The notes under the pieces were generated by a model. That model was not told the DNA's origin, did no database searches, and saw nothing but the letters and a program-made list of their open reading frames with translations. From a virus (Duplodnaviria > Heunggongvirae > Uroviricota > Caudoviricetes): 64,000 nucleotides of DNA. Location: the IMG/VR virus record IMGVR_UViG_3300027608_000017; one strand, written 5' to 3'. The position numbers and the translations under genes are program-made. Shown here one piece after another: positions 25,169 to 62,603 of this stretch; within the stretch, counting starts at the first letter, position 1, and each line of letters opens with the position of its first letter.

Positions 25169-25933
25169 GTGACCGCTTCAACCGCACAACCGAGACGATA
25201 CCGCGAGCAGCAGGCTGCTGAGCGTCCGTCGCTTGGCCCGTATCGACCCGTCACCGAGCCGTCGCGGATTCAGGGATCGCAGCGACTTGTCGTGACCATC
25301 GCCACGGGCGAGAAGTATCTTGCGATTTTGGGTTTGACTCGCCGACCAATGCAGGACTACTCCGAGCGCTGCGGCGCAGACTTCATCGAGATTACTGACA
25401 GCACGCAGGACTGGCCGCTCTACGAGAAGTTCCGGTTGCGAACGATTGCCGAGCGTTACGACCAGACGCTGTTTCTGGACGCGGATTGTCTCGTTCGCCG
25501 CAGGTGCCCGAACCTGTTCAGGATGTTCCCGAGCGGCGTGGCGATGCGCGATGACGCCTCGCTTTGGCCTGCCGATTGGATGCAGGCCCGTTGGACTGCG
25601 GTGATGTCGTCGCAAGGGATTGCTCGGTCGTTGCAGGAGCCGATCCGAGCGTGGAACACGGGTGTCGTGCTGTGTGACCGCGACCATGCGTTCTTGTGGG
25701 AGCCGCCAGAGCGACCGCTATCGGACGGGCACGAGTCAGAGCAAGTTTGGGTGCAGGCGACTCTGCAAGATCGGCTCGTCGAAGTGCAAGACATCGGGCC
25801 GGGATTCAATGACCAATACTACTACCCGACCTTCCGTCAAACCCTACCGCAGACGCAGATCGCTCACTTCGCACTTTGCCCTGACCGGCTGAACGAGATC
25901 GCGAAACTCAAAGCGGAATGGTGCCAGCCGTGA
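25169..25933 (+). CDS. putative GT-A fold glycosyltransferase (DXD)
   Basis: VVTIATGEKYLAI...TLFLDADCLV; family not assigned. Confidence 0.45.
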   Translation: MTASTAQPRRYREQQAAERPSLGPYRPVTEPSRIQGSQRLVVTIATGEKYLAILGLTRRPMQDYSERCGADFIEITDSTQDWPLYEKFRLRTIAERYDQTLFLDADCLVRRRCPNLFRMFPSGVAMRDDASLWPADWMQARWTAVMSSQGIARSLQEPIRAWNTGVVLCDRDHAFLWEPPERPLSDGHESEQVWVQATLQDRLVEVQDIGPGFNDQYYYPTFRQTLPQTQIAHFALCPDRLNEIAKLKAEWCQP

Positions 25934-27456
25934 ACGAATCAGAAGCTCTCTTGAAGATGGTCTCGCCGCGTGATCGGCGTCCCGGCGCTTGGCGTGGCGG
26001 TGTGATGCAGATCATGGTCACGCGCGCTTGCGACAAGGCGTGCTTCGGCTGTACCCAAGGGAGCAATCTGGGCGGCAAGCCCGTGTTCATGTCGCCGGAT
26101 CAGTTCGAGGAATCTCTGCTCTCGCTCAAAAGCTACTTCGGCGTGATCGCGCTGTTCGGCGGCAACCCGGCCATTCACCCGCAGTTCCCTGAGCTGTGCC
26201 GAATCATGCGTCAGCACGTCCCGTATGCTCAGCGCGGCTTGTGGTGCAACCATCCGCTGGGTCACGGCGCGTTGATGCGCGAGACGTTCAACCCTTCTGT
26301 CAGCAACATCAATGTGCATCTCGATCCAGAGGCTCGGGCCGAGTTCGAGCGGGACTGGCCGGAGAACACACGGCTGCTCGGGACCGACACAGACTCACGT
26401 CACAGCCCGCCGTTCGTCGCGATGCGGGACGTGATCGCCGATGAGTCCGAGCGATGGGAGTTGATCTCAAACTGTGACGTGAATCAGCGGTGGTCGGCAC
26501 TGATCGGCGTGTTCCGGGGCGAACTGCGAGGCTACTTCTGCGAGTTGGCCTACGCTCAGTCCGCACTCCATCAGCACGAGCCGGACTATCCCGACACGGG
26601 CCTGCCGATCTCTCCCGGTTGGTGGGATCAGGGGATGGACGACTTCGCTTCGCAGGCCCGCAAACACTGCCACGACTGTGGCATTCCGTTGCGTGGTCAC
26701 GGAGAATTGGCCATCGGCGGACAGACCGAGCAAGTCAGTGCGACTCACGCCGCAGCGTTCCACCCGAAGCGACGAGACCGGGCTGTCGAACTGGTTCAAC
26801 TGCGAACGCAGCTTGGCGCGACGCTGGACGTGGCGACGAACTACATCGAGAACGCGACGCGGATTGCGGAAGCCCCTGCTGCCGCACCGCCGGTCGATCT
26901 GGATTGCAACCCGCACACTGAACCCAGTGTCGCGGGTCTGATTCGCACGACACGCCGCGAGCTGGCTCGGATCATCGAACTGCTGCCGCCGAACGCGCGT
27001 CTGCTGGAGATCGGCACGGCCAGCGGAGGCACCGCCGCCCGGATCGCCGACGCCCGCCCTGACGTGCAGATCACCTGTATCGACATCTTCGCGGAATGGC
27101 CCGATCACTCTGTCATGCACCGGCCAGCCAACTGGAGGACCAACCAGCGGCCGAACATGCACCTCTGGGTGGGCGATGTCGCCAGCTACGCAGCCCAATG
27201 CGGGGTACTGTTTGACGTGGTGCTGATCGACGGCGACCACACCGAGGCGGGTGTCTCGCGTGACTTGGTGACGGCTCCCGAGTTGCTGGCTCCAACAGGT
27301 CTGCTGCTCGCGCACGACTACACCGATCCGAACTGGCCCGGTGTCCGAGCGGCGGTGGATCGGTTTTGCGATCAGGCATCGCAGAGCCACGACCACATTT
27401 TAGGTGGATGGAGAGTCGAGGAATGCTGCTGGTCCTTGGCAGTGCTTCGTCGATGA
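25918..27456 (+). CDS. fusion protein: N-terminal radical-SAM-like domain plus C-terminal class I SAM methyltransferase
   Basis: CDKACFGC (CxxxCxxC) followed by LFGGNPAIHP; C-terminus LEIGTASGGTA (motif I) and FDVVLIDGDH. Confidence 0.6.
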   Translation: MVPAVNESEALLKMVSPRDRRPGAWRGGVMQIMVTRACDKACFGCTQGSNLGGKPVFMSPDQFEESLLSLKSYFGVIALFGGNPAIHPQFPELCRIMRQHVPYAQRGLWCNHPLGHGALMRETFNPSVSNINVHLDPEARAEFERDWPENTRLLGTDTDSRHSPPFVAMRDVIADESERWELISNCDVNQRWSALIGVFRGELRGYFCELAYAQSALHQHEPDYPDTGLPISPGWWDQGMDDFASQARKHCHDCGIPLRGHGELAIGGQTEQVSATHAAAFHPKRRDRAVELVQLRTQLGATLDVATNYIENATRIAEAPAAAPPVDLDCNPHTEPSVAGLIRTTRRELARIIELLPPNARLLEIGTASGGTAARIADARPDVQITCIDIFAEWPDHSVMHRPANWRTNQRPNMHLWVGDVASYAAQCGVLFDVVLIDGDHTEAGVSRDLVTAPELLAPTGLLLAHDYTDPNWPGVRAAVDRFCDQASQSHDHILGGWRVEECCWSLAVLRR

Positions 27457-35425: not shown

Positions 35426-35624
35426 GTCGCTCCCTTTTCAATGGAATTGCCTAGAAGTTTCCACATGATATAGATTTAGTCGGTACTGTAAAGTCTCGAA
35501 ATAGCGATGTTCCCAGCGAATTGTCCAAAACGCGCCGCCACGCGCTCCGAAACATTTGTGAGAATATTTTTCGCAATTCCAAGAAATCTGTGTCCTGAGG
35601 GGCCGTTTCTCCGTACTCAGGGGC

Positions 35625-35831
35625 ATGACCACCACACCCACCATCGACAGACGCCGCAAGGCTGCTCACGAGCGACAATCCACTCAGGTCGTGTTTCTCG
35701 CGACGGAGGAATTTCGCGACCTACTCGACCGCGCGGCGTCGGCAGCGGGCTACTCCACCCGCACGGGCTGGATGACTCAGGTTCTAAACCGCGCGGCCCA
35801 TCGCGCTCTCTCACAGAAAGCGACTCCTTGA
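35625..35831 (+). CDS. small basic protein (possible ribbon-helix-helix regulator)
   Basis: 68 aa; stop overlaps the dnaN TTG start. Confidence 0.4.
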   Translation: MTTTPTIDRRRKAAHERQSTQVVFLATEEFRDLLDRAASAAGYSTRTGWMTQVLNRAAHRALSQKATP

Positions 35832-36928
35832 AAGCCACCTTCCACCGACAGTCTCTCGCGTCGGCCGTGCGCGATGCCTCCCAGATCGTGCCGACGCGCA
35901 CCACGAAGGACATCCTCAAGTGCGTCAAATTGACGATCGCCGGGGACGAGTGCCGGATCGAGGCCAATGACGGCGAGTCCCACGTTGTGCGCTATCTGCG
36001 GGGCGTCGAATGCGCACGCCCCGGCTCGGTGCTGATCCCGGCGGCCAAGCTCAACGCGATCCTGTCTGAAGTGACCGCCGAGTCGATCGCCCTCGACATG
36101 AACGGGACGGACTGCCGGATCGTGTGCGGCCGCGTCAAGCTCACACTGCCCACGCAGCCCGCCGAAGACTTCCCTTCGATCGCCGAGTGGGCGTTCGACT
36201 CGTACCATACGATCAGCGCCGGTGAACTCAGCCGCGCGCTCAGGCGGACGCTCGTGTTCTGCGATACCGTCTCGACCCGCTACGCACTCGGCGGGGTGAA
36301 TCTGGCCGTGGCGAATGGTGTCCGGGCGTCGTTCCAGTCCACGGATTCGCTGCGGGCCGCCGAGCAGATCGCGACTGTCGTGACCACGGGTGAGGACTCG
36401 CCACTGCACGGGGTGACTGTGGTCCCTCACCGGGGAGCATCGGCTCTGCTGTCGATGCTGGATGTCGATCCCGTGGACTTCGCGGCCGACGCCAATTCGC
36501 TCTACGCACGGAGCGGCGACTTCACGCTGAAACTGCAATTCGTGCAGGGCCGGTTTCCGGATTTCAACAAGATTTTCCTGCCGATCGAAAACGTGATCCC
36601 GGTGGTGGTGGGGCCGCTGCGCGATGCGTTTCGGCAGTCTCTGCTGACAACCTCGCCGGACTCCAAGGGGGTGGGGATGACGTTCGGCGGCGGCACGCTG
36701 CTGCTCTCCAGCAAAACGGCCGACGAAGGCAGTTCGGAAGTGGACATTCCTGTCGAGTTCGCGGGCGAGCTGAAGATGTGCCAGAACGCCACCCTGCTGA
36801 TGTCCGCGCTAAAGTTGTTCGACGGTGCGGATGTCCTCCGGATGTCGGTCTCAGAAAAATCGCTGACGATGACGCTGGCGACCGAAGACGGCTGGCGATT
36901 CATGCAGATGGGCTTGGCGGTCGAGTAA
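35828..36928 (+). CDS. dnaN: DNA polymerase III beta subunit (sliding clamp)
   Basis: 366 aa from TTG; three-domain length and N-terminal pattern FHRQSLASAVRDASQIVPTRTTKDILKCVKLTIAGD..., PTQPAEDFPSI match DnaN. Confidence 0.75.
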   Translation: MKATFHRQSLASAVRDASQIVPTRTTKDILKCVKLTIAGDECRIEANDGESHVVRYLRGVECARPGSVLIPAAKLNAILSEVTAESIALDMNGTDCRIVCGRVKLTLPTQPAEDFPSIAEWAFDSYHTISAGELSRALRRTLVFCDTVSTRYALGGVNLAVANGVRASFQSTDSLRAAEQIATVVTTGEDSPLHGVTVVPHRGASALLSMLDVDPVDFAADANSLYARSGDFTLKLQFVQGRFPDFNKIFLPIENVIPVVVGPLRDAFRQSLLTTSPDSKGVGMTFGGGTLLLSSKTADEGSSEVDIPVEFAGELKMCQNATLLMSALKLFDGADVLRMSVSEKSLTMTLATEDGWRFMQMGLAVE

Positions 36929-37542: not shown

Positions 37543-40500
37543 ATGCCCGCTGATTTCCTCGAAGCCCTCGCCGTTGCCGCCGCCCATTACCTGCCCGAGC
37601 ATGAGTTTTCGGCAATGCCAGCCGATCTACCGCAGACGAAATATACAGGGAACAAGCCATACACAGGGAAGTTGCCGACCGGAACGGTAGGGCGCAAAGT
37701 CGCCTTACCTCCACCGCCACTCATCCACGGGACGGACGCCGCCGGATACCGGACTTCATTCGCGCCGACAGGCGGCGCGACCAAGGCAGCGGCCGATCCA
37801 TACACGGGCACATTCGGCCCGAAGCCACCTCCACCGCCAGAGATGGTAAGATTGAAGGAGCCGAGTCACTCGGACTTCCAAGTGCCGTTCCCCGCTGACG
37901 CACACCGCGAACACCTCAGTGGCCTGGCCAGCATAGCAAAAAGCAATCCGGCGGCACTCCACCGGGACGATCACGCGGCCCTGTTGAGGCACTTCAGCAC
38001 TCAGGCAAATCGGTTCTCCGATCGCGTCAAACGCGGCGAAAAAGTATGGCAGGGCGAGGCCGATCACTTCCAAGATGCCTCGCGAAGCCTGTCGAACCAC
38101 ATGACCAGGCAGCAGCAGTTTTCTCGGCGATCCACCCCCGAGGAGATCGCGGCGAACGAAGCCGAGCCGACGCATATCCGGCGTCTCAAGATGCCGGACC
38201 ACAAGGATTTCCATTCCGGCTATAGCTACGGCGAGACGTTTCACGGGCACGTCAACGACATGGCCGACCTGGCCGTAGCTGACCCGAGCCGCATTCACCC
38301 CGACGACCATCCGGCACTGCATCACTATTTCGGGAAAAATCTGCACATCAAGCGCATGGGGCAGGCGTCCAAAATTCTGCGGGAACATGCCGCCAAGTCA
38401 GCAGAGTCAGCCAAGAAGCCATCGCCGCAGAAGCCCAACTATCGCGTGACGTTCTCGCGCGAGGAGACGGCGACGGAGTTCGCCCGCAAGGCCAAACCCG
38501 CCGCCGGTCAGAAGTCGATGTTTGGCGATGACGACGACGAGCCGAGCGCACCCGCTCCAGCACCAGCGGCGCAGGCGATCACACCCACCAAGGCCGGTGC
38601 CGGAGACTGGGACGAAGACTTGCACCCGCGCGGCGATCACGGCAAGTGGGCGCTGGCGGAATCGCACGAGCCGCAGCCGAACCACATCCACGCTGACGTG
38701 CGCGACCACGAAGGCGAGACGATGGGCTATCTCTCGCATCCTCACGACGGGACGACGAATGGCATCCGCGCGGCCCACGCCGAGGCCAAGGAGGGGTTGA
38801 CCTCGGCCGGTCACGACTGGTCGAGTCCTCACACTCGCTGGGGCGCGACAGACCACACTGGGGAGCCACGGCATCACATCAGTCACGACGGCCAGCAATT
38901 GACGGACGTGGCCGATCCCCGCAACGCCCAGCGCGGCCCAGGTGGCTTTGAGGCACCGCCGAAGAAGGCGCGACCAGCACCATACCCGAAGGCGCCGGAA
39001 CGAGAAGACCGCAAAGCGGAAAGGGAAAGCGCATTCTATCCCAAGCAGGCAGCGGAGCCAGCCATCCCCGCCGACCTCGCCGAAAAGTACCCGTCGTTGG
39101 TGGAGCCGCACGCCGCTGCCCCCGAGCCGGAGCAGCACTGGTATGGGATGCACAACCGCCCGCCCGCGATCGGCGCGATCCCCAAGGGGAACTACGACCA
39201 CAAGCCCCACGACGAGTTCCGGCACGGGCAGATTTCGTATGGCAGGCCGCTCACTGAAAAGGAGCAGTACGACTACGAACTGACTCCGATTCGCAACGAT
39301 TCAGAAATTCCCGCGCTGGCGAGGGGCGTTGCCGAACGAATGGGACCGTACGTCGCGAAGTATTTGGCACCGGGCGCAGAGAAGCTGCTCAATGGGTTTC
39401 TCCGCCATGGACAATCCGCAAAAGATCTTGGGCACGTCGATCCCGAGAAGATTAAGGCCGAACTGCGGAAACAGCACGGATCAACCGAATCCACTCCCAG
39501 CGTCGCGGCCCAGGAGGAAGCTCCAGTCGGGAAACCGGCGAGCGACGCGCAGGAGGGGGCCAGTGACGGCCGGGAATCCGTAAGCAACGACACGCTGTTC
39601 AAGCGATCCGGCCAGCAGTTCGAGGAAATTCAAAAGTCACTCGGCATCACCAAGCCGCAGATGGGACAGCAGGGAGCCGACGCCGTGCGCAAGGCTTTGG
39701 CGTCTCGCGTCGGCGGCCCCGTGATCGCCGAGATGCTCAAGGTCCACGAGCATAGCCCGGACGCATTCGCGAGACACGGATTCGCCACCGGCACCGAGGC
39801 TTATCGCGACTCGCTGAGTGGGAAGTTCTCGAAAGAGCAGTTGCTCGACGCCTCGCGATTCGCGGCCGGACACGAAAACGGCGATATGTCGCGGTTCGTG
39901 CGCGACAGCATTCGCGGCGCGACAGCGACAGACGGTGGTGTTAGCGCCGAGGACCACGCACGCGCGCATCAGGCTGGCAGCCTAGATCGTCTCGCGAAAT
40001 CGCAAGGCGCAGATGAGGCGAAGGCGACGAAGCGGCAGGCCGATGATTTGATGGTTCCGTCACCGCCCGCGTCAGGTGACGCGAATCATGGCTCGCCAGC
40101 TTCTTCCGAGGCTGACTCAGAATGGAACCACCAGCACTCCGACCAAGAGAAGGGCTATCGAGAGCAGGAGCGGACGTTTAGCGAGGTCATGAATGATCCG
40201 AGCAAGTCGTCGCTGAGGGATTTGACGCTGGCGTATGGACAGGGCACGCACCTGATGCGGCACTGGGACCGTCGCGCCGAACGCGGAGAGATCACAGCCC
40301 AGCAGCGCGACGACCACAATGACGGGATGCGGCGTGAACTCGACCACATCAGTAGCCTCCAGAGGGACTACATCAACGGGCGGAAAGCCGCGCCCGCCGA
40401 CGACATGAGCCGCGCCGAGAAGATTGCCGAAGAGGCGTATCACTCGAAGACGCCGCTGGAGTCAGTCGCTCGCAACATGGGATTGACCAAGAGCGAATGG

Positions 40501-43500
40501 CATGACGAACGAGCCGCAGCATCGAAGCTCCACGGCGAGTTGAGTCAGTACGATGGCGAGCCTGCGCAGCCGAGCAAGGCCCGCGCGAAGGCGATGGCGA
40601 GTCAGCAGGCCAAGCAGGCAGCGGAGCCGCTCCCCGCCGACATCGCCGAGAAGTACCCGTCGTTGGTGGAGCCGAAGCCAAGCCACAAGCACATCCCTCT
40701 GTACCAGAACCCGCCAAAACGAGAGGGCGATCTCGAAGTTGACCACGACCCCGACTACCATGTGACGCGACACGCCGACAGGCTGAATGACGCAATCACA
40801 GACGCCAAGGAGAGCGGCGGGATAGACGCACCGTCGATCCAGAGCCGACACCGAATCGCCAAGGGGCTGAGTCCCGACGAGATGACGCGGCTCGGCGAGC
40901 ATCTCGGGATCGAAGACACCTCGCCCCGTGGTGTGCAGGAACACATTCAGGCTCAATTGGAAGACGCGATCAGCCAGCACGGACAGAACACCTACGCCGC
41001 CGCCGGATCGAACCCCGGCAATCGCCCAGACGACTCATCGGGAGCAGAACGCCGAGTCAAGGCCGCCGCCGCGAAGCTAGTGGAACTGGACGACAAGCCG
41101 TTCTCGCCGTACTGGCAAGACAAACGATCCGAGGCCAAGAAGGAACTCGCCGCCGCTAAGGACGAGATGAATCGGTCCACGAATGCCGCGCGAGACTCCA
41201 AGCCGGAGGCAGCGAAGCCATTCCGGCCCGAGGCGGTCCCCGGCCAACAGATGGGCATGTTCGGCGAGGAGAGATCGGGACAAAAGCAACTCTTCAACGT
41301 CGTGAAGCCGAAGCGAGGCGACAAGCCGCAAGCTGTCGCGCCGTCAGAATTGGAGAGGATCGGCGACGAGATTGACGCACGTCAGGCGGAACGTCAGCCG
41401 CTGCCGGGGCAGAAGTCGATCGCGGAACCTGAAGATCAAGAAGACGAGAAGACGTTTCCATCGCAATCTGAAGTCGATTTCGCGAAGACTCTAGCCCAAA
41501 AACATGGTTCTCCAGTCTCTCCCGTAACATCAGCAAGCGGGCGACATGAGTTGGCGTCTCGGTTCAGTAACATGCTGGAAAGGGCCGCAGGCAAGTCCAC
41601 AGACGAATTGGAGTTGGAACAAATCCTGTCAGCGGCAAAGGGGAAGACGGATGAGAGCCGCGTTGCATGGGCGATTGCAAACAATCCGCATTCAAGCGAC
41701 GCCGTGTTCGAGAAAGCAAAAGCAAACGAGGCGATGAGGGAGATGTCTCCCGATTCCGCCATCAGCCACCTTGATGCCCGCCGAGCCGAATTGAGGAAGA
41801 ATCGCGGCCTTGCGGCACCATCGCAGTCGATCGAGGAGCAGTACCCGTCGCTGAAGGAGCCACCGGCAGGCGATATCGCCAAGCGAGTCTCGAACGACGA
41901 GTTCGCCGACGGGGACTGGGATCAGGCCCACAGCGGACTCGCCAGCGAAATCGTCCAGTCGAAGATGGTTCAGGGCATGAAGGGGATCGAAGGCCGCGAG
42001 TACGGGATGCGCGAGCATTCCCCCGGCAAGTGGCAGATGGTTTCACGACCGGGCAAGACGGCGGAACAGATCAAACGAGACAAGCCATCAACCCAGCGAG
42101 AAGCAGACGAAGCAGTCGTCTCGTCGAATATGCGATCCAATCTCTTTGATGAAATGAGGGACGAAAAAACGCAGTCGGATCGCAAGGAAAAAGTATCGAA
42201 ATGGAGGGGCCAGTACGCCGATTCGCCGCGAGAGAACATCGCCTCTGGAGACATAGCAAGGCACGACTGGGAAAAGGCTATTCAAAACGGAGTTGCGCCA
42301 GCACGTCTCTCCGAGATGGTTGAAGACGCAATCAGGTCGGGCGCTTTAGACGCCGGTGTCGGGAAGCACCTGAAGGAAAAATTCTCCGTCGAGGAGCAGT
42401 ACCCGTCGCTGAAGGAGCCAGCGGCACCCGAAGGCGCGGATGAGTCGCACTACCGCGACAACCTGAAGGACATAAAGAAACACGCGGCGACTGCTAAGGC
42501 CGTCGCAAACTCAGGCGTCAACGCCGGTCACAGTGTGCAGAAAATGATGTCGGACTTCCGAGATAACGGGATGATGGAGGGGGACGCGCGCCGGACAATT
42601 CTCGACGCATTCGACCGCACGGGTGTCCCTGTCAATCACGGAGACGCGAAGACGGCGGAACCAGCGTCCGTCGATCACAAAGAGGCCGAGCTACTCCGAC
42701 AGCAGATCGCGAAACTGGAGGGACACGCTGAGAAGCTGGACAAGGGCGCGGCGTCACTCAAGGCGAAAGAATACAAGCCGAACAGCGGGCGGATCACGAA
42801 GCTCGACCAGTTCGGCGAAGAGGTGGGAACGCAATCCATCGGCGACGTGAACGAGAGGCGTCGATCAAGGTCGATTGACCTATCGAGCCACCAGTCACAG
42901 GAGAACCGCGAACTCGTCGCGAAGCTCAAGGGGAAACTCGCTGCCACCGAGAAGCGGATCGAGAGGGATGCGCCGTATCAGGACGACGGCAAAACAGAAG
43001 ACGAACTGATGGGCGAATGGCTGAAGGAGACTCACCCGGAGCTGGCAAACAAGTCTCCGAAGGCTGAACCGCCAACTTCCGGCCGAGAGAACAACGCAAA
43101 GATCATCCGCGCCGAGAAGAAAATCTCTGACCTGCGACAGGAGAAGGCGCGGCTCGCGCCGGGCCTGAAGATCCCCCACAAGGCCAGCGAGGCGGAACTC
43201 GGGATCGCGGCTCTCGATGCCAGGATCGCGAAGGCGCAAAAGTCACTGGATCAGGTGAAGGCCGAGTCCGGCTTCAAGTCCGCGCCGGACATCACCGACC
43301 AGTACCCGTCGCTGAAGGAACCGGAAGCGGTGGCGAAGCAGCCTCATGAGATGACAAAGGACGAGTACGTCCGACAGTTGCCGGAAGGTGAAGAATACCA
43401 GCGGCACGCCAAGGAGTGGGCAGCAATTTCCGGCGACAAGGAATTAAGGAGACTGTCAAGGCAGCAAGAGGAACATGGATGGGAGAAGCCTCCCACTTAC

Positions 43501-45510
43501 AGCGACAGGCGTCGCAAGTGGGATACCGACAATAGTCGAATAGAGGCCGCGATTTCATCTAGGGTTGCGTCGCTTGGCCTTCCACCAGAAGCAGAGCCTA
43601 TGGTCAGAGTCCTGACCGTCCGCGAGGCGCAGCACAACAAGGCGATGGTGCAGAACGGGAAGACCCCGGAGCAGCAGTCAATCGACGAGCCGGAAGCGGT
43701 GGCGGATAAAAACGCCAGCACTTCCGCGCAAGTGAGTGCGAAACGATCCACGGCAGAGTTCCTGAAGACGCACAAGGACCAAGTGGCGAAGCGGGCCAAG
43801 AAGAACCCCTCTCCAAAATTCTCCCACGAGGCCGAAGCGGAAGCTGTGGCTCAGAACCGGGCCGCTGCCGATGCGAGGCAAGCCGCCAAGTCCACCGCCG
43901 ACATCACCCAGCAATACCCGTCACTCGCGGAACCGAAGGCGGAAGATTCAGCCGCAACAGAACCGGCACACAAGCAGTACGACATCTACGAAACGCACGC
44001 CAGGAACCACCCCGACGGCGCGAGGACGATGCACGCCGTGGCCATGCGGGAAGACGGCAAGCGAGGATTCGGGGACACGCTCCACAACACCCACGAAGAG
44101 GCGGTCGCACACATTGAACATGCAAAGGTCGCCGCGAAGAACAAGCAGGAGTGGCAGGCCAAGGTTGCGGCCGACGAAGCAGACAAGGAGAAGGCCAAGG
44201 CCGAGAAAAACGACCTCGGCGGCTACGAAAGCACGCTATCTGCCGCCTCAAGAGGCAAGGCCGTCGAGCATCTCGACAAGCTGGCCAGGCTCGACGGGAA
44301 GGATGCCCGCCTCAAGGACCACGTCAAGCGGCTGGTGGAGGCGGGCGAGGTCACGTCCACCCGAGACGAGGACAAGGTGAAGCCGATGACGCGGACGCAG
44401 TTCAACCGCGCCGACAACGCCCAACAAGAAGCCCACGAAAAGAAGATGAAAGCGGGCGGCACGAAGACCAACTACCTGCTCGGCGGCTGGAACGTAGGCA
44501 AGCTGGCCCATGACTACGCGAACCATCTGATCGCCAAGAAGGGGGCCGCTGACATCACGAAGCAATACCCGTCACTGGCGGAACCGAAGGCCAAGGAGCC
44601 GCACGAGATGACGTGGCAGGAGATCAAAGGCGGACACGCCAGCGAACGCGCAGCGATTCCGTCTCAAGTGGCGGCGGCGGAGTCCGAGTACGCACAGGCT
44701 CGATCGGGTTTCGACGCGGAGTCGAAAAAATCAATGGACCGCGTCAGGGCGATTTCCGCCAAGGTGAGACGACTGAATCCCACTGGCGACACTGCGGACA
44801 TCGACTCAGACAGCCAGAAGGCCGTTGAAAAGCTCAAGAGCGAATGGGACACGATCTCGAACAGGCTTCGCGATCAGGAAGCACCGCACCGCAGCGATTT
44901 TGTTGCCGCGCGGATGCCGCAAAGCAAGCTCCCATCTGGACAGCACGAACACCGAACTCTTGTGGCCAAGGCCATCTCGGACGGCAAGATCGCATCGCAC
45001 CCCGATTACCCAGAACTATCCGAAAAGGACGAACAGGAACCCGAGATGAACGGCTGGTCCCCCGAGAACCACGTCAAGGTCGCCGCCGACTCGATCCAGA
45101 AGCTACGCGGCCAAGATGTTCACCGCCTGCTCGACTCAGCACCGCCCGAGGGAATGGAGAAAATGGCGAAGTACATCCTCAAGCACCGGCCAGAACTCGT
45201 GGGCGACATCCGCGACGCCAAGATCGACATTCAGGACGAGCGAGGGCAACAGTTCAGCCGAGAGGAAGAGACCTGCGAGGGCGCGACCTGCTCGCCGCGC
45301 GAAGCCCTCGTCAAATGTCTCCACGAGTGCCTGAACCACGACGGGCAGGCCGACATCGAACACGAGGACACCGACGGCTCGATTGAGTCGATGATCCCCG
45401 CAGACCCGAGCCAGCTTGACCGACACGTAGCGGAAACTATAAGAACTTTCGCGGAAGTTTCACCAAAACTGGCGAAGGCGCTGGCGGCATACCAAGGGGG
45501 ACGATCGTGA
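37543..45510 (+). CDS. giant 2655-aa Glu/Lys/Asp/Ala-rich protein with 7 periodic QYPSL[KVA]EP motifs and N-terminal tandem domains
   Basis: Uninterrupted 7968-nt ORF with protein-like composition throughout; conserved motif block DITxQYPSLxEPxAxEPHEMT recurs. Confidence 0.7.
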   Translation: MPADFLEALAVAAAHYLPEHEFSAMPADLPQTKYTGNKPYTGKLPTGTVGRKVALPPPPLIHGTDAAGYRTSFAPTGGATKAAADPYTGTFGPKPPPPPEMVRLKEPSHSDFQVPFPADAHREHLSGLASIAKSNPAALHRDDHAALLRHFSTQANRFSDRVKRGEKVWQGEADHFQDASRSLSNHMTRQQQFSRRSTPEEIAANEAEPTHIRRLKMPDHKDFHSGYSYGETFHGHVNDMADLAVADPSRIHPDDHPALHHYFGKNLHIKRMGQASKILREHAAKSAESAKKPSPQKPNYRVTFSREETATEFARKAKPAAGQKSMFGDDDDEPSAPAPAPAAQAITPTKAGAGDWDEDLHPRGDHGKWALAESHEPQPNHIHADVRDHEGETMGYLSHPHDGTTNGIRAAHAEAKEGLTSAGHDWSSPHTRWGATDHTGEPRHHISHDGQQLTDVADPRNAQRGPGGFEAPPKKARPAPYPKAPEREDRKAERESAFYPKQAAEPAIPADLAEKYPSLVEPHAAAPEPEQHWYGMHNRPPAIGAIPKGNYDHKPHDEFRHGQISYGRPLTEKEQYDYELTPIRNDSEIPALARGVAERMGPYVAKYLAPGAEKLLNGFLRHGQSAKDLGHVDPEKIKAELRKQHGSTESTPSVAAQEEAPVGKPASDAQEGASDGRESVSNDTLFKRSGQQFEEIQKSLGITKPQMGQQGADAVRKALASRVGGPVIAEMLKVHEHSPDAFARHGFATGTEAYRDSLSGKFSKEQLLDASRFAAGHENGDMSRFVRDSIRGATATDGGVSAEDHARAHQAGSLDRLAKSQGADEAKATKRQADDLMVPSPPASGDANHGSPASSEADSEWNHQHSDQEKGYREQERTFSEVMNDPSKSSLRDLTLAYGQGTHLMRHWDRRAERGEITAQQRDDHNDGMRRELDHISSLQRDYINGRKAAPADDMSRAEKIAEEAYHSKTPLESVARNMGLTKSEWHDERAAASKLHGELSQYDGEPAQPSKARAKAMASQQAKQAAEPLPADIAEKYPSLVEPKPSHKHIPLYQNPPKREGDLEVDHDPDYHVTRHADRLNDAITDAKESGGIDAPSIQSRHRIAKGLSPDEMTRLGEHLGIEDTSPRGVQEHIQAQLEDAISQHGQNTYAAAGSNPGNRPDDSSGAERRVKAAAAKLVELDDKPFSPYWQDKRSEAKKELAAAKDEMNRSTNAARDSKPEAAKPFRPEAVPGQQMGMFGEERSGQKQLFNVVKPKRGDKPQAVAPSELERIGDEIDARQAERQPLPGQKSIAEPEDQEDEKTFPSQSEVDFAKTLAQKHGSPVSPVTSASGRHELASRFSNMLERAAGKSTDELELEQILSAAKGKTDESRVAWAIANNPHSSDAVFEKAKANEAMREMSPDSAISHLDARRAELRKNRGLAAPSQSIEEQYPSLKEPPAGDIAKRVSNDEFADGDWDQAHSGLASEIVQSKMVQGMKGIEGREYGMREHSPGKWQMVSRPGKTAEQIKRDKPSTQREADEAVVSSNMRSNLFDEMRDEKTQSDRKEKVSKWRGQYADSPRENIASGDIARHDWEKAIQNGVAPARLSEMVEDAIRSGALDAGVGKHLKEKFSVEEQYPSLKEPAAPEGADESHYRDNLKDIKKHAATAKAVANSGVNAGHSVQKMMSDFRDNGMMEGDARRTILDAFDRTGVPVNHGDAKTAEPASVDHKEAELLRQQIAKLEGHAEKLDKGAASLKAKEYKPNSGRITKLDQFGEEVGTQSIGDVNERRRSRSIDLSSHQSQENRELVAKLKGKLAATEKRIERDAPYQDDGKTEDELMGEWLKETHPELANKSPKAEPPTSGRENNAKIIRAEKKISDLRQEKARLAPGLKIPHKASEAELGIAALDARIAKAQKSLDQVKAESGFKSAPDITDQYPSLKEPEAVAKQPHEMTKDEYVRQLPEGEEYQRHAKEWAAISGDKELRRLSRQQEEHGWEKPPTYSDRRRKWDTDNSRIEAAISSRVASLGLPPEAEPMVRVLTVREAQHNKAMVQNGKTPEQQSIDEPEAVADKNASTSAQVSAKRSTAEFLKTHKDQVAKRAKKNPSPKFSHEAEAEAVAQNRAAADARQAAKSTADITQQYPSLAEPKAEDSAATEPAHKQYDIYETHARNHPDGARTMHAVAMREDGKRGFGDTLHNTHEEAVAHIEHAKVAAKNKQEWQAKVAADEADKEKAKAEKNDLGGYESTLSAASRGKAVEHLDKLARLDGKDARLKDHVKRLVEAGEVTSTRDEDKVKPMTRTQFNRADNAQQEAHEKKMKAGGTKTNYLLGGWNVGKLAHDYANHLIAKKGAADITKQYPSLAEPKAKEPHEMTWQEIKGGHASERAAIPSQVAAAESEYAQARSGFDAESKKSMDRVRAISAKVRRLNPTGDTADIDSDSQKAVEKLKSEWDTISNRLRDQEAPHRSDFVAARMPQSKLPSGQHEHRTLVAKAISDGKIASHPDYPELSEKDEQEPEMNGWSPENHVKVAADSIQKLRGQDVHRLLDSAPPEGMEKMAKYILKHRPELVGDIRDAKIDIQDERGQQFSREEETCEGATCSPREALVKCLHECLNHDGQADIEHEDTDGSIESMIPADPSQLDRHVAETIRTFAEVSPKLAKALAAYQGGRS

Positions 45511-46103
45511 CTCGAAAGGAAACCGCGATCTACGTCACGGGGCTGCTGCTGGCGTGCGGGCTAATCTGGATGGGATCGTTGCCGATCGTCCCGCCAGCAC
45601 CCGAGAGTGTCGTCGCGCCGCAGTTGTCACCGGCCCCTGCCCCAGCCATCGACGAGGCTCAGGCCGAAGCCGATCGCGATCCGTGGGAGGACGAGCCGGG
45701 AGGCGACGCCCTGCCCTACGGCGCATCCGCGTCGCGGGGCAACGCTTGGGCCAAGGCTCGCGACGCCTACCGCAAAACGCACCCGACGTGCGCGGCGTGT
45801 GGTTGCTCGGGGTCGATCGCGATCCACCACGTCAGGCCCTGGCATCTGTGTGAGGCTGAAGAAGACCAGTGGATGAGGACCGATCCAGCGAATCTCGTTG
45901 CGCTCTGCACCTGCAACGGATCAGATGGCAGCGGAAAGCACAACTGCCACTGGATCCACGGCCACCTCGCTATGAACTGGAAGGCCAGCAATCCCAACGT
46001 GCGGGCCGACGCCGAACGATTCCGCCAAGCCCGCATTGCAGCCGCCCGTCAACTCGAACTCGAAAAGAATCCCGATGCCAGCGATCCCCGAAACTGCGAG
46101 TAA
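45507..46103 (+). CDS. HNH endonuclease with N-terminal membrane anchor
   Basis: CAACGC...IHHVRPW...NLVALC...CHWIHGH; GTGA overlap with the giant gene. Confidence 0.7.
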   Translation: MTRKETAIYVTGLLLACGLIWMGSLPIVPPAPESVVAPQLSPAPAPAIDEAQAEADRDPWEDEPGGDALPYGASASRGNAWAKARDAYRKTHPTCAACGCSGSIAIHHVRPWHLCEAEEDQWMRTDPANLVALCTCNGSDGSGKHNCHWIHGHLAMNWKASNPNVRADAERFRQARIAAARQLELEKNPDASDPRNCE

Positions 46104-46291: not shown

Positions 46292-46771
46292 TTGTGGTTC
46301 TACAAGGCCCAGTTCGGCACCTGGCAGGACAAGTTCATCTCGTGGTGGACGGTCGGCCCGTACTCGCATGTGGAACTCGTGTTTCCCGACGGCCGCTGCT
46401 TCTCGTCCAGCCCGCGCGATGACGGCGTCAGGGTGACGCGCATCCCGCCGTCAGATCACTGGACGGTGGTGAAGTTGCCGCAGATGCCCACCAGCCCGGC
46501 AGGCGCTCTCGCCGTGTCGCTGGAGTGCGCCCGATTCATCGGGCGGGGCTACGACTGGCTAGGCTGCTTCGGCTGCTGGACGGGCGTCTCCAGCGTCCAC
46601 GACGGCAACCGCTGGTACTGCTCCGAGATCGTGATTCACATGCTCAATCGGTTCGCCGTCGGCCCGGCGATCCCCGAGCGACTGAATCCCAACAGGCTGT
46701 TCGATCACTTGGCGACAGCAGGTCTTCGCGCCTCAAACCCGTCGGCCAGCACCTGCGCGACGCGCGACTGA
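46292..46771 (+). CDS. possible permuted NlpC/P60-like (His before Cys) hydrolase
   Basis: YSHVELVF...RGYDW...NRWYCSEIV; start codon uncertain (TTG). Confidence 0.3.
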   Translation: MWFYKAQFGTWQDKFISWWTVGPYSHVELVFPDGRCFSSSPRDDGVRVTRIPPSDHWTVVKLPQMPTSPAGALAVSLECARFIGRGYDWLGCFGCWTGVSSVHDGNRWYCSEIVIHMLNRFAVGPAIPERLNPNRLFDHLATAGLRASNPSASTCATRD

Positions 46772-47331
46772 ATCTCGCGATCCCGCAGCGCGAACTCGCC
46801 GTCGAGGATGCAGTTGTAGACGCCGCCCGAGAGATCGACTTCCTCGCCCCGTTCGGCCGAGACCGACAGGATCGCCTCGGCCCATGCCTCGGCCGGGATG
46901 TATTGGTTCGCGAACACATAGGTTGCACCGCCACGGACCAGCACGGCACCGGGTTGCGGGCAGTCTGTCGCGAACTCAGGCACGGCACCACGTTGACCGC
47001 GCGTTCCCTTGCAGGACGCCGGGGCAATCCGCCCGTCCGGCAGCAGCCAGCCCTCGGAACTGTATTCCATGTCGATCGAGCCATCGAAGCCGCCGAACTT
47101 GTAGCAGCGCGTGATCGCCTCAACGCTGTCCTGCATTGGGAAGCCGTCCCAATGGATGTTGACCGAGTTGTAGTCACTTGTGACAGAAAACTTGACGCCG
47201 GGGAATTCACTGGCGAGGCGAGCCTTGACCAACTTGCCCACGTCCTTGGCACTGATGTGAGCGCAGCCGTCGCCGTCTCGGGAATCGCGGGCGGCTTTGA
47301 TGATCTTGGTGATGGCGGGCGAGGGTTTCAT
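46705..47331 (-). CDS. hypothetical protein
   Basis: ATG 47331 (MKPSPAITKII...); first gene of the minus-strand small-gene array. Confidence 0.45.
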   Translation of the reverse strand: MKPSPAITKIIKAARDSRDGDGCAHISAKDVGKLVKARLASEFPGVKFSVTSDYNSVNIHWDGFPMQDSVEAITRCYKFGGFDGSIDMEYSSEGWLLPDGRIAPASCKGTRGQRGAVPEFATDCPQPGAVLVRGGATYVFANQYIPAEAWAEAILSVSAERGEEVDLSGGVYNCILDGEFALRDREIQSRVAQVLADGFEARRPAVAK

Positions 47332-52668: not shown

Positions 52669-53052
52669 ATGACCTTGAACGACGAGCCATTGACGATCGA
52701 CTACTCGGACTTCGTGCGGCGACTCGCAAAACCGGGTCAGGACATCCTCGCCGGGATGACACCCGAGCAGGCCAACCTGATGCACATGGCCATCGGGATT
52801 GCCGAGGAGGCCGGGGAGCTACTCGGCGCGATCAAGAAACACGTCATCTACGGCAAGCCTCTGGATGTGGCCAACGTGATCGAGGAGCTAGGCGACCTAT
52901 TTTTCTACATTGAGGGCATGAGCCAAGCTGTTGGCGTCTCGCGCAACCACGTCCTCCAGCAGAACGTCGCTAAGCTCGCCGTGCGCTACGAATCACTCCA
53001 GTACAGCGATCAGGCAGCAGCCGCACGGGCGGACAAGGCAGGTGAATCATGA
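52669..53052 (+). CDS. MazG-like nucleotide pyrophosphohydrolase
   Basis: AIGIAEEAGELLGAIKKH...VIEELGDLFFYIEGM. Confidence 0.7.
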   Translation: MTLNDEPLTIDYSDFVRRLAKPGQDILAGMTPEQANLMHMAIGIAEEAGELLGAIKKHVIYGKPLDVANVIEELGDLFFYIEGMSQAVGVSRNHVLQQNVAKLAVRYESLQYSDQAAAARADKAGES

Positions 53053-53474
53053 CGACAATCAATCCGATGAGCCAAGGAGCTGTTCACACGCCGGGACCGT
53101 GGGAATGTGAGAAAGATCACGATGAACCGTTCACGGAAATTGGAGAACCGATTGCCATCGTTGGCGGGGAAGAAACCGGCGAAGGAGTCCGATTCGTTAT
53201 CGGCCGAACATGCGACTTCGGCCCACACGGCGACAGGCAGACAGCGGCGAACGCTCGTCTGATCGCAGCCGCTCCTGACCTGCTGGCCGCATGTGAGGCG
53301 GCGATGCGGATAGCAATCCTGTGGTGCCCGGAGTCGTGCAGCGATCCTCTCCACATGGAGGAGCTTGCCGTTCTCGGGGCGCTAAAAGAGAAGATCAAGA
53401 CTGCAATCGAGAAGGCTACGAACAGATTCTGTTTGTCCGAATTCGGACGAACAGAAAAAGTGAATACGGCCTGA
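53049..53474 (+). CDS. hypothetical protein
   Basis: 141 aa, ATGA overlap with MazG. Confidence 0.45.
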   Translation: MTTINPMSQGAVHTPGPWECEKDHDEPFTEIGEPIAIVGGEETGEGVRFVIGRTCDFGPHGDRQTAANARLIAAAPDLLAACEAAMRIAILWCPESCSDPLHMEELAVLGALKEKIKTAIEKATNRFCLSEFGRTEKVNTA

Positions 53475-53745
53475 TTGCCCAAGTCGTTGGTTTGTATGAC
53501 TTTGTGGCCAACGGCACACGAAAAGACGCAAGTCGTTGGTCTATATGGCTTCACGTCGAAAAAGCGGAGAAAATTCGTCCCGTCGGACTTTCCCTTCCCT
53601 ACAGGGAAGAGAATCGGGCAACACAACGGCAGGGAATCGGGAAGGGGATTGGAAGAGAATCAGGAAGAAGAACGGAAGAAGAACGGACTTCATTGCCAGT
53701 GTGCTGGCGTGACGCGGGGATGTTTACTCAAACGGGGAGATAGTG
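53475..53745. other. 270-bp noncoding region with 23-bp imperfect direct repeats and a 100-bp purine (GA) tract
   Basis: CAAGTCGTTGGTTTGTATGACTT / CAAGTCGTTGGTCTATATGGCTT 49 bp apart; GGGAAGAGAATCGGG...GGAAGAAGAACGGAAGAAGAACGGA. Confidence 0.5.
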
Positions 53746-54366
53746 ATGCGTGCATTGTTGCTGTCGGTTGCGTTGCTGTGCGGGACATCATTCGGCGCGG
53801 ACGAGGTGCCCGCCAACGTGGCCGCATTCAAGGAGCGGTGCGAGGCGGCGAAGGTGAAGAATGTCGCGAGAATTGAGAAAGACTACGACGACGCCAAGTC
53901 GGCGGTGAAGGCCGCGACATCCAGCACCGAGAAGGCCAAGAGGGTCAAGAACCTCAAGGCGGCTCTGGAGAAAGTGAAGGAGGCCGAGGCGGAACCGTGG
54001 CACGCACAGCGGACTCAGATCGACACCGCGACGGCGGGCAGCATCGGCGAGTTCTTCACGTCGGGCTACAACCACTCGCGGATCGGGGTCTATTTTCACG
54101 CCGACAAGGTGACGGCCGACAAAGTCACGGGCTACATCGTGCATGACGGAGCGACGCCGAAGCTGCTCGTGCGCGCTGGGGGGGCAGTCGCGAACAATGT
54201 CTACTCCGAACCGGGGAAGGGTTCAAAACAGCCCGCCACGATCCTCGGCGGAACGGGGTTCACCGAGGGGAAGCAGGTGGTGATCAAGGGTCGCTACGAA
54301 GTGGTCACGACCAAGCCGCTCACGTTGAAGCCGTTCGACGTTGAACCGTTCCAGTCGCTCAAGTGA
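53743..54366 (+). CDS. secreted protein (signal peptide)
   Basis: MMRALLLSVALLCGTSFGADE. Confidence 0.5.
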   Translation: MMRALLLSVALLCGTSFGADEVPANVAAFKERCEAAKVKNVARIEKDYDDAKSAVKAATSSTEKAKRVKNLKAALEKVKEAEAEPWHAQRTQIDTATAGSIGEFFTSGYNHSRIGVYFHADKVTADKVTGYIVHDGATPKLLVRAGGAVANNVYSEPGKGSKQPATILGGTGFTEGKQVVIKGRYEVVTTKPLTLKPFDVEPFQSLK

Positions 54367-54488
54367 TTGGGATCTCGCCGCGTTGGATGACTGGTGTTGA
54401 GTGAACTCAAGTCGGCCCCGTTGCGGAAGTAGTCCGCATGGGTGGTGGCGTTGGAAGCGGTTGTTGGCAAGTAAAGAGAAAGGCAAAG

Positions 54489-54761
54489 ATGGCTAAGCGA
54501 ACCCCGTTTGCGGTACACGATTCGACGCTATTTGTGAAAGCAAAGTATTCCGGAATTCACCACCTGGTGATCATGTGTGATGGACTCCCGGTGACGTTTT
54601 TCGGCGAGGAGAAAACAGATTACATGAAAGTCTCCGAGGTGATCGAGTGGCACGAAAAAGAGCTGGCCGAAAGTGGCGGACAGAGCGGCGACAGGGGAGT
54701 TCTGGAGGCGTTGCAGGTCGCGATGGAAAAGTTCCAAGCTGGATCGTGCGTGGAAGCCTAG
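54489..54761 (+). CDS. hypothetical protein
   Basis: ATG 54489 (MAKRTPF). Confidence 0.4.
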   Translation: MAKRTPFAVHDSTLFVKAKYSGIHHLVIMCDGLPVTFFGEEKTDYMKVSEVIEWHEKELAESGGQSGDRGVLEALQVAMEKFQAGSCVEA

Positions 54762-54862
54762 TTGCGGTCCTGTTGTTCACCGGTTGGGCATGGCAAGATG
54801 CTGCATGTGCATGTGCCAATTACCACGGCGAGTTCGGCTGCGGGTCGTGACGGAGTGAATGG

Positions 54863-55195
54863 TTGTTGTTTAAGGGGCAGGAAATGAAGCTGATTGAAAA
54901 CAGAATCGCAGACGAGGATACGCATCAGGAACTTCTGAGGGCGGAGCCGCACGGGAAACTATGCAGGGGCAAACTGTGCGGGGATTTGTTGTTGTTCTGG
55001 CCAGAGGCAGAGGATAGCGATAACGTCGCGGCCTATCGTTTCCGTGTCGCAGACATTGTTGACGACTGGATCAACAGCAATGTCGGCGGAGGGACGCGAC
55101 AGTTCCACGGGGCCGACAAAAATAAAGCCAAGATGCTGATTAAAGACTTGGAGTCGATGATTCAGCGAATCAGAGACGCCATGCCGGGTGACTGA
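54863..55195 (+). CDS. hypothetical protein
   Basis: 110-aa ORF. Confidence 0.4.
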   Translation: MLFKGQEMKLIENRIADEDTHQELLRAEPHGKLCRGKLCGDLLLFWPEAEDSDNVAAYRFRVADIVDDWINSNVGGGTRQFHGADKNKAKMLIKDLESMIQRIRDAMPGD

Positions 55196-55328
55196 GTAAA
55201 TTTTACTAGGGGGTGTTCTGTGAATCACTACGCTTGAGCCGTTCAATCACCTTGAGATCGGTTAGCCAACACAACCACCCCACCCCCCTTGACAGCCAGC
55301 ATCCGTATAGTGAACATCTGTCCAGTAC

Positions 55329-55940
55329 ATGCAGTGTTCACTCATACCGGGGTCGATCAAAGTCATGGGAAGCCACCACAACAACAAGGGTCGCAATAAG
55401 GGTCAGGAATTAGCCGCGCCCGAAGCCCCCGAAGTGTTGACGGACCCGAACAGGACCAGATCAGATTGCCGTCTTGCCGCGCGGGCCATCAAGGAGCGCT
55501 GGGCCGTCAGCCCCACGGCGAAGACCGCCATCGTTGAGCGGCTGACTGAGATCGTGGAGAAGCGCTCCGTCACGGTCACGAGCCGCGAGGGCAATGTGGA
55601 AGAGTGCGAGGACACGGCGGACATGCACGCGATTGCGGCCTCCCGCGTCTTGGTGGCGATCGTCGGCCAGAATCAGGCTGACGAACACTTGCAGCTCAAG
55701 GCCGAGATGGCGGAAGACAGTGCCAAGTCGTCGGGCGACACGTACAACATCGGCGTCGTCGGCTCGATGATGCACGGGGGCGAGCCGGTGAGCATCGACC
55801 AAGCGCGGGCGCAGGCCATTGAGGCTGTCGCCAAGCTGATGGACCGCACCACGACTCCAGATCGCGTCCCCCCCGCTCAAGCCGCATCCCCGCAGACGGA
55901 TTCGCTGGAACGGCACGGGGCTGGGCTGGAGGACATCTAG
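55329..55940 (+). CDS. possible terminase small subunit (positional call only)
   Basis: Directly upstream of the TerL gene; no recognised motif. Confidence 0.3.
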   Translation: MQCSLIPGSIKVMGSHHNNKGRNKGQELAAPEAPEVLTDPNRTRSDCRLAARAIKERWAVSPTAKTAIVERLTEIVEKRSVTVTSREGNVEECEDTADMHAIAASRVLVAIVGQNQADEHLQLKAEMAEDSAKSSGDTYNIGVVGSMMHGGEPVSIDQARAQAIEAVAKLMDRTTTPDRVPPAQAASPQTDSLERHGAGLEDI

Positions 55941-55945
55941 CCCAG

Positions 55946-57586: not shown

Positions 57587-57616
57587 TTTTCAGAACATTC
57601 ACAGGAGTTCTTTTCG

Positions 57617-60361: not shown

Positions 60362-60366
60362 GGGCG

Positions 60367-60912: not shown

Positions 60913-60916
60913 CTCG

Positions 60917-62528: not shown

Positions 62529-62603
62529 TGTTCTCGTTGTCCTGAAAGGGTTGTAAACAAAGAGGCTCCCGCTGACATCCAGCAGGCTTGGGGCCAGCAA
62601 TAA

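Follow-up and report, generated by a model that had tools for sequence, protein, structure and literature searches.

What kind of protein occupies an open reading frame (ORF) of 7968 nucleotides (nt) in a tailed phage, and what do the seven YPSL peptides strung along it do? The ORF lies in a 64,000-nt stretch of DNA from a member of the Caudoviricetes (IMG/VR record IMGVR_UViG_3300027608_000017), hereafter called the window, and it is open for 2655 codons. A preliminary description, made from the sequence, had pointed out this unbroken frame and had suggested that the repeated peptides could be sites at which a protease of the T4 gp21 type cuts a polyprotein into head-internal or ejected proteins, or alternatively docking motifs. 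Here we describe the product, referred to as the giant protein, as a member of the polyvalent-protein class whose cassettes are punctuated by two kinds of short peptide, YPSL and EF[S/A]R. The reading that we favour from comparative evidence, with a probability of about 45%, is that it is a polyvalent head cargo trimmed at EF[S/A]R, in which the YPSL joints are most likely a second class of processing site.

All seven YPSL sites in the giant protein have the form YPSL[V/K/A]EP, so that each reads L-x-E followed by Pro, as had been noted. They are not regularly spaced as first thought, since the intervals measure 522, 396, 186, 301, 204 and 217 amino acids (aa; range 186-522). A longer repeated block running on to xAKEPHEMT had also been described, and of the seven sites just two are followed by it (aa 1934 and 2353). 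A degenerate eighth site of the YPELSE form, DYPELSE, is located at aa 2489. No YPSL motif was found in any reading frame of the window outside the giant ORF.

Homologous giant proteins were proposed as a check on the motif, and such proteins exist. P0002 and P0003, two sister proteins of 2261 and 2095 aa, came out of a word-indexed search; their contigs (76 and 110 kb) share the order dnaN, small ORF, giant gene and overlapping 198-aa gene. An exhaustive search with aa 522-1721 of the giant protein as the query yielded 132 relatives, many of which are mosaic proteins of 1000-3700 aa. YPSL recurs among the relatives, and the number of motifs rises with that of the cassettes. In total 136 sequences were scanned, with distant relatives taken as clusters at <=50% identity. 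YPSL occurs 52 times in the giant protein and its relatives, compared with 0.86 occurrences expected from composition, which excludes chance; 51 YPSL joints are found in 13 family proteins (one joint peptide reads PADIAEKYPSLVEP).

The tetrapeptide is exactly YPSL at 47 of 47 sites that were matched for the upstream context [I/L/V]-x-x-[K/Q...]. Its nearest variant, YP[E/D]L, ends a recurring 'PHEMT' module, and no other variants were seen. Within the trio of sister phages, none of the 19 sites has lost Y, P, S, L or E, and the next residue is P, S or G. The codons for these residues vary synonymously at the same sites (TAC/TAT, CCG/CCC, TCG/TCA, four Leu codons and GAG/GAA). This rules out a DNA-level repeat and indicates that selection acts on the joint peptide, not on the DNA. 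A profile of the joint alone had no match at E <= 10 in the word-indexed database.

The joints coincide with the borders of cassettes. When the three sister proteins were cut at the joints, the resulting segments were found to be gained, lost or replaced. Nine of 20 distinct DNA homology breakpoints between the window and the sister-phage loci L001 and L002 lie within 20 nt of a joint, where about 1.2 would be expected, and none of 20,000 random placements reached nine. One L002 homology block begins in the linker, 17 nt upstream of joint 3, and reaches as far as the final codon of joint 4. The DarA_C module also has stand-alone matches, proteins of about 120 aa whose alignment begins right after joint 1, and the module at aa 1312-1427 terminates seven residues ahead of joint 3. 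Disorder propensity peaks locally at the joints, and a low-confidence model of aa 1901-2655 places them in coil after helices. Homology mapping separates at least 10 modules in the giant protein, of which Pfam recognises one. By these comparisons the motif marks module boundaries, and cassettes are swapped between sister phages by recombination at the joints.

Polyvalent proteins are multi-module chains of phages and conjugative elements that are predicted to be packaged, injected and processed into units (Iyer et al. 2017, PMC5512222). The only Pfam domain in the giant protein is DarA_C (E 2.7e-8, above the Pfam cut-off). Searches of PHROGs, NCBIfam and PDB sequences found nothing, and no enzymatic domain was identified with these or with Pfam. 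The capsid-binding DarA_N domain was not detected by Pfam, so that DarA_C stands alone. Among the top 30 relatives, 17 contain DarA_C. The other Pfam domains in these 30 are Portal_Mu, Phage_Mu_F, InPase, LPD1, LPD5, PBECR3, an SNF2/ResIII helicase and a methyltransferase. That homologous cassettes are fused to portal and MuF domains of the head speaks for head packaging. The phage origin expected of the class is seen in the genes of the window, which encode RecT, a YqaJ-family exonuclease, an integrase, a sigma factor, dnaN, TerL and a virion structural protein.

Judged by these homologies, the giant protein is a member of the polyvalent class, and homology and context indicate that it is probably packaged in the head and injected into the host. 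Two published cases back the packaging of related proteins. Mass spectrometry detected a comparable LPD protein, of 2811 aa, in virions of phage phi24B (bioRxiv 10.64898/2026.04.10.717836), and P1 DarA is found on the inner capsid surface, with an N-terminal piece removed by the prohead protease (PMC12810830). A second giant protein in the same genome (giant no. 2; 3160 aa by gene call, first 1975 aa read) carries three ADP-ribosyltransferase domains of the ART-PolyVal type, and at its N-terminus (…DSVEFSQGALPGQKSLFG) it is similar to the leader of the first.

A second peptide, EF[S/A]R and its close forms (class B), flanks and divides the same chains. A leader of 21-24 aa (36 aa in one) that ends in EF[A/S][R/A] or a related form was found in 15 of the 16 family members examined. 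At the other end, [E/Q/T]FSR occurs 69-84 aa (102 in one) from the C-terminus in all 13 YPSL-bearing members, and the C-terminal hallmark domain is kept at the C-terminus of P0002, P0003, P0006-9, P0013-14 and P0017-19. Class-B motifs (aa 193 and 304) also separate the two His-rich repeats near the N-terminus of the giant protein. This tandem repeat had been noticed before and is real, with a local score of 99 between the copies compared with 30 +/- 6 for shuffles. Copy 1 is missing from P0002, where the deletion fuses EFS to FSR, and in P0009 and P0014 the sequence EFARKxKPAAGQKSMF comes directly after the leader. The junction before DarA_C is YPSL in P0001, P0009 and P0014 and HEAFSPK in P0006 and P0007, so that the two motif classes are positionally interchangeable.

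Class-B junctions are also found in other large proteins. The modules of giant no. 2 are separated by five copies of FSRDFGPVEF[S/G], and the adjoining 326-aa gene has the class-B motif three times. Beside the distant relative P0009, a 1734-aa protein (L005 553-5757) contains sigma-70 region 2 and 4 domains and a faint ART-PolyVal match, and is punctuated by FSR...LL.HEF[S/G] junctions. Considering these junctions, it is possibly a virion-delivered sigma factor.

Class B also links the giant protein to the head genes. Locus L006 is 100% identical to window positions 52845-64000 and runs past the window end into a head module with genes for a 436-aa protein, a lambda gpD-like decoration protein, a gpE-like major capsid protein of 387 aa and a Mu gp36-like protein, as well as a gene with weak tape-measure-like matches. 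The 436-aa gene is directly upstream of the decoration and capsid genes. The N-terminal 155 residues of its product were modelled with block-mean pLDDT values (predicted scores in the local distance difference test) of mostly 72-88 and one weaker loop. The best PDB fold matches of this domain are herpesvirus assemblins, from Kaposi's sarcoma-associated herpesvirus (4p2t; probability 0.99, E 5.7e-3, template modelling (TM) score 0.4 on target), human cytomegalovirus and Epstein-Barr virus, with T4 gp21 also among the matches. At the sequence level Pfam gave no S77 or S78 match. The protein has a conserved Ser114/His54 pair. The rest of the protein, a variable linker and scaffold stretch, is predicted to be disordered. 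Inside the variable stretch LAFSR, EFSA, SMSRD, YEFSRQ and EFSR are invariant in 14 homologues, and the 5-mer HEFSA is common to this protein and the leader of the giant protein. YPSL and a conserved L-x-E are both missing from the protease-scaffold, decoration and capsid proteins; the conserved sites of the protease-scaffold are F-S-R/E-F-S.

From the model and gene order, we infer that the 436-aa protein is a prohead protease-scaffold fusion with an assemblin/T4 gp21 fold and that the F-S-R class represents its cleavage sites. If so, the leader and the C-terminal domain of the giant protein would be propeptides. The invariance of EF[S/A]R in the phage's own protease-scaffold ties the giant protein to head maturation. 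Propeptides of similar size are known, since the prohead protease of phage SPN3US removes N-terminal propeptides of 20-24 residues from head proteins (PMC10052503).

The giant protein thus opens with a leader of about 23 aa whose last residues are EFS, continues as a variable cassette string and closes, after QFSR, with a conserved C-terminal domain of about 80 aa. The string comprises two His-rich repeats, the DarA_C module and at least eight further modules, mostly without an assigned function, and its joints follow the consensus [I/L]-x-x-[K/Q]-Y-P-S-L-x-[E/D/G], kept invariant by selection at the protein level. Together these features suggest the following model. After loading of the precursor into the procapsid, the assemblin-fold prohead protease would trim it at EF[S/A]R sites, removing the leader and the C-terminal domain, and would chop up its own scaffold part at sites of the same class. 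The YPSL joints would then be read in trans, most likely as processing sites that free each cassette as an effector of its own, inside the head or once injected. Of the possible cut registers, the T4-type one after L-x-E appears the least likely. Both motif classes would be brought under one rule by a cut behind the aromatic residue ([K/Q]-Y|P-S and E-F|S-R), which is speculation.

Processing at YPSL is favoured because the motif stands where other chains have the probable protease sites and because its copies increase with the cassettes, and we consider cleavage there plausible. We can only tentatively extend the model to a phage polyprotein system, in which several giant head-packaged precursors would be strings of effector cassettes with two punctuation peptides and about 8-12 injected effectors per chain. 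Such a system might cover the DarA_C, ADP-ribosyltransferase and sigma-factor types. In it, EF[S/A]R would be cut by the assemblin-fold protease, and YPSL perhaps by the same enzyme in an 'aromatic|small' register or else by a second enzyme.

Several points weigh against processing of a head cargo at the YPSL joints. All of the evidence for cleavage is comparative, and packaging is judged from homology and context. Neither the protease-scaffold nor any other ORF seen contains the motif, so the head protease must accept two dissimilar sites, or a second protease, of which none was found, is needed. In absolute terms the candidate protease has a weak fold match (best E 5.7e-3, TM 0.4), and the giant protein itself has neither an HExxH motif nor a Pfam peptidase family. 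The variable acidic position after YPSL fits a binding motif equally well. Some cassette borders have no joint, as between joints 1 and 2, where there are several modules. Finally, the single-sequence AlphaFold model of aa 1901-2655 is all-helical with a mean pLDDT of 53, which is too poor to show whether the joints are exposed.

How do other explanations of the joints compare? The cleavage rule proposed at the outset takes them for L-x-E|P cuts made by the prohead protease, as by T4 gp21, which would give about eight head-internal proteins. It draws on the S-L-x-E found at 19 of 19 sites in the three closest phages, on a prohead protease encoded by the phage with a predicted assemblin/gp21 fold, and on Glu or Asp at 43 of the 51 sites. 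Over all 51 sites, however, the putative cut-site position holds E 36, D 7, G 6, N 1 and A 1 times. Outside the closest trio Glu is kept at only 17 of 32 sites and is replaced at the other 15 (D 7, G 6, N 1, A 1), even in orthologous joints (IEDQYPSLKEP vs IEDQYPSLKGF). Such a cut would put the invariant residues at P6-P3 and leave P1 variable. It would also be followed by Pro at 29 of 51 sites, and Pro next to the cut bond is disfavoured by most serine proteases. The conserved sites of the protease itself are F-S-R/E-F-S without a conserved L-x-E, and no Peptidase_S77 match is found at the sequence level. Since Glu is variable and YPSL is invariant, the conserved recognition element is hydrophobic-x-x-[K/Q]-Y-P-S-L and not L-x-E. 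Thus, from the idea of head-internal proteins cut from a polyprotein we retain the modularity, the motif at module borders and, by inference, the head cargo; the L-x-E rule is not supported, and cutting of this kind appears very improbable.

A more serious contender, which we nevertheless find doubtful, is docking. Each YPSL joint would then be a linear motif that binds a partner while the giant chain stays intact. Binding to the scaffold or to the inside of the HK97-fold capsid could anchor and condense the chain at many points; a host protein met after injection is another candidate partner. Four invariant residues and a hydrophobic one four positions upstream, set in disorder-prone linkers, form a typical binding-motif pattern, and a variable acidic position suits a binding motif better than a residue at a cut bond. 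In addition, no protease of matching specificity was found. Short peptides that target the capsid interior have precedents in the C-terminus of the HK97 protease and in encapsulin cargo-loading peptides such as ...GSLKG, which appears to resemble YPSLKG. P1 DarA contacts the inner capsid surface via loops and helices (PMC12810830). Yet a single targeting signal per protein would be enough, and the motifs scale with the cassettes and sit between them. YPSL is also positionally interchangeable with EF[S/A]R, whose invariance at several points of a scaffold that must be removed gives it the look of a protease site, and no docking partner has been identified. The joints could also be passive, with no biochemical role of their own, either as conserved in-frame recombination joints that hitch-hike with cassettes or as a structural cap that closes the preceding module at its C-terminus and is akin to the tail 'P.EVLA.YP[E/D]L' of the PHEMT-type module. 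The concentration of DNA homology breakpoints at the joints, the RecT and YqaJ-family exonuclease encoded by the phage, and the likeness of P-x-E-I-A-x-K-Y-P-S-L to the module end PPEVLADYPEL are all consistent with this. Against it, synonymous codons differ at 19 of 19 sites with no residue change, and the peptide is invariant at 47 of 47 sites across proteins that are at most about 50% identical. The modules upstream of joints are mutually unrelated, which argues that the joint is not the end of one particular fold. Near-identity spans only about 8-12 nt, which is short for homology-driven exchange. Passive joints therefore seem improbable.

The preferred reading, processing of a polyvalent head cargo, can be set against known systems. 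Like the polyvalent proteins of PMC5512222, the giant protein is very large and has many unrelated modules, among them DarA_C, and an LPD29 gene lies next door. That paper proposes processing through a built-in zincin-like metallopeptidase, a frequent theme that is not obligatory, whereas the giant protein has none. This clade is instead punctuated by invariant YPSL and EF[S/A]R, the latter also present in the prohead protease-scaffold. The class itself and the idea of chain processing are already known from PMC5512222. A word search of that paper (processing, cleavage, linker, autoproteolytic) gave no junction motif, and in the paper collection searched no publication linked YPSL with bacteriophage. 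What appears to be new is a junction peptide that is invariant across the clade, a second one shared with the prohead protease-scaffold, and direct evidence for the exchange of cassettes at joints.

P1 DarA shares DarA_C, lines the capsid interior and exits with the DNA (PMC12810830). It differs in being a 639-aa protein of a single architecture, whereas the giant protein has no detected DarA_N or capsid-binding region. The P1 structure does not resolve the DarA_C part of DarA, for which no function is known. The T4 internal proteins and Alt, and the cargos of phiKZ and SPN3US, are likewise targeted to the prohead, with an assemblin-fold protease, a short consensus and propeptides of 10-24 residues, features that are proposed here. 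The Alt-like ADP-ribosyltransferase domains of giant no. 2 suit the same theme. Those cargos are, however, encoded by separate genes with one propeptide each and show no sequence-level similarity to the giant protein, which has many modules in one 2655-aa chain. The consensus of the T4 prohead protease is L/I-x-E, as opposed to YPSL and EF[S/A]R here. African swine fever virus pp220/pp62 (cut at G-G-X) and the adenovirus precursors are giant virion precursors with a repeated short consensus and a virus-coded protease. They are not homologous to the giant protein and use another protease class, and cleavage in the giant protein is a prediction.

Table 1. Coordinates of the giant gene, its joints and motifs, and associated genes (window positions unless a locus is named)
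Feature	Position	Strand	Remark
Giant ORF, 2655 aa, polyvalent-type cassette protein	37543..45510	+	open for 2655 codons
N-terminal leader, aa 1-23, MPADFLEALAVAAAHYLPEHEFS	37543..37611	+	ends in class-B motif EFS
His-rich repeat copy 1, aa 98-184, then QQFSRR	37834..38094	+	local alignment vs copy 2
Class-B motif FSR, aa 193-195	38119..38127	+	DNA homology breakpoint with L001 8 nt off
His-rich repeat copy 2, aa 209-293	38167..38421	+	
Class-B motifs TFSRE (aa 304) and EFARK (aa 313), then KPAAGQKSMF	38452..38487	+	
Joint 1, YPSLVE, aa 516-521	39088..39105	+	L001 and L002 DNA homology begins exactly here
DarA_C domain (PF18789), aa 532-584	39136..39294	+	Pfam E 2.7e-8
Joint 2, YPSLVE, aa 1038-1043	40654..40671	+	
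Joint 3, YPSLKE, aa 1434-1439	41842..41859	+	homology breakpoint 17 nt upstream
Joint 4, YPSLKE, aa 1620-1625	42400..42417	+	L002 homology block terminates inside
Joint 5, YPSLKE, aa 1921-1926	43303..43320	+	breakpoints 9-10 nt downstream, both sister phages
Joint 6, YPSLAE, aa 2125-2130	43915..43932	+	breakpoint 17 nt downstream
Joint 7, YPSLAE, aa 2342-2347	44566..44583	+	breakpoint 5 nt upstream
Degenerate joint, YPELSE, aa 2489-2494, tail of 'PHEMT'-type module	45007..45024	+	breakpoints inside and 12 nt after
Class-B motif FSR, aa 2571-2573	45253..45261	+	ahead of C-terminal hallmark domain
C-terminal hallmark domain, aa 2574-2655	45262..45507	+	Cys-rich, ...LNHDG...IP.DP..LD...
Phage dnaN (beta clamp)	35507..36928	+	upstream context
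198-aa gene, hydrophobic N-terminal segment, Cys/His-rich	45507..46103	+	start overlaps stop codon of giant gene
LPD29-family gene	46723..47331	-	tblastn 61% identity to L005 LPD29 gene
Giant no. 2	L004 14352-20276		outside window, upstream of position 1, opposite strand
436-aa prohead protease-scaffold candidate	L006 5690-7000	-	~2.3-3.6 kb past window position 64000

The window corresponds to positions 6709-70708 (reversed) of k141_691506, a 112,953-bp metagenomic contig of an uncultured phage, on which a protein identical to the giant ORF product is recorded. Relatives of 110-118 kb carry P0142, P0143, P0147 and P0149. The giant gene has no nucleotide or protein match (tblastn) among 50,697 phage records, P1 included, and no nucleotide match among 72,556 plasmid records. 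It had been said to follow dnaN, which does lie upstream, although two small ORFs (70 and 124 aa) separate the two genes. On its other side, the overlap between its stop and the start of the 198-aa gene recurs in L001 and L002, and thus in all three sister phages. This suggests translational coupling of the 198-aa gene, which has a weak HNH match (E 0.0046). The LPD29 gene is the sole neighbour that is kept as far as the distant relative L005; Pfam assigned LPD29 in L002 and L005.

A few other candidates were considered and rejected. A built-in zincin peptidase was discarded as the processing enzyme because the giant protein lacks HExxH. A 600-aa Trypsin_2 protein was set aside for the same role because its hydrophobic N-terminus suggests export. 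The YPSL motif was also considered as a beta-clamp-binding motif, but half of the sites have K and not Q before Tyr, and the hydrophobic spacing is unlike QL[S/D]LF. The clamp-binding reading is further unsupported because dnaN is not adjacent to the giant gene in L005. Separately, recurrent [L/V]PGQ(K/Q)xx[L/M]F peptides (GQKSMF, PGQQMGMFG, GQKQLFN and PLPGQKSI) occur in the giant protein and in giant no. 2. In the former they are at aa 323-329, 1233-1254 and 1288-1293 (about nt 38509-38529, 41239-41304 and 41404-41421). They are loosely like the beta-clamp-binding consensus Qxx[L/M]F, and the phage dnaN is nearby. A module of about 70 aa with these peptides is also found as stand-alone proteins of 67-72 aa (P0082 and P0108).

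Other genes of the window have features of their own. The 600-aa protein (16988-18790, +) has a hydrophobic N-terminal segment that reads by eye as a signal or membrane anchor. Its trypsin-like domain shows TAAHV, DIAVL and GRSGGG, which would fit a His/Asp/Ser triad. The protein has weak matches to the MarP and HtrA families, and an exported protease is unusual for a phage. A 159-aa ORF two genes downstream of the giant gene (46292-46771, +) matches phrog_1128, labelled enoyl-CoA hydratase-like. By eye its His...Cys arrangement (YSHVELVF...WYCSEIV) recalls permuted papain-like NlpC/P60 enzymes. This assignment was rejected, as the ORF has no match in Pfam, NCBIfam or PDB sequences and no counterpart in L005. 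A 1199-aa Thr/Ser/Gly-rich tail-fibre-like protein (21550-25149, +) is encoded by the stretch with the lowest guanine-plus-cytosine content (0.52 vs 0.60) and contains the block STTEQLRLGYDASNYYSTTVSS in three near-identical copies. A 512-aa fusion of radical-SAM and class-I methyltransferase domains (25918-27456, +) is located just downstream of a glycosyltransferase-8-like gene (25169-25933), and these are possibly a DNA- or surface-modification module. TerL of the window (55946-57586, 546 aa) has a Terminase_6C match only, and that of a sister phage (L002 24850-26288) is called as 814 aa with an intein (Intein_splicing). A transfer RNA scan of the window found none.

Polyvalent proteins are thought to be a widespread route by which phages and plasmids deliver many counter-defence activities. 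How their chains are loaded and formed into units is largely conjecture, and this clade supplies two short invariant marks. If the joints are cutting sites, eukaryotic viruses with their structural polyproteins would have a counterpart in this phage, and the joints would show how giant phage ORFs that lack annotation can be divided into effector units. Should the polyprotein reading hold, recombination at the joints would let phages reshuffle effector sets in frame. As docking sites, the joints would instead make a candidate tag for multivalent loading into the capsid. Under either reading, the mapped borders define about a dozen modules, with no function assigned, for host-defence screening.

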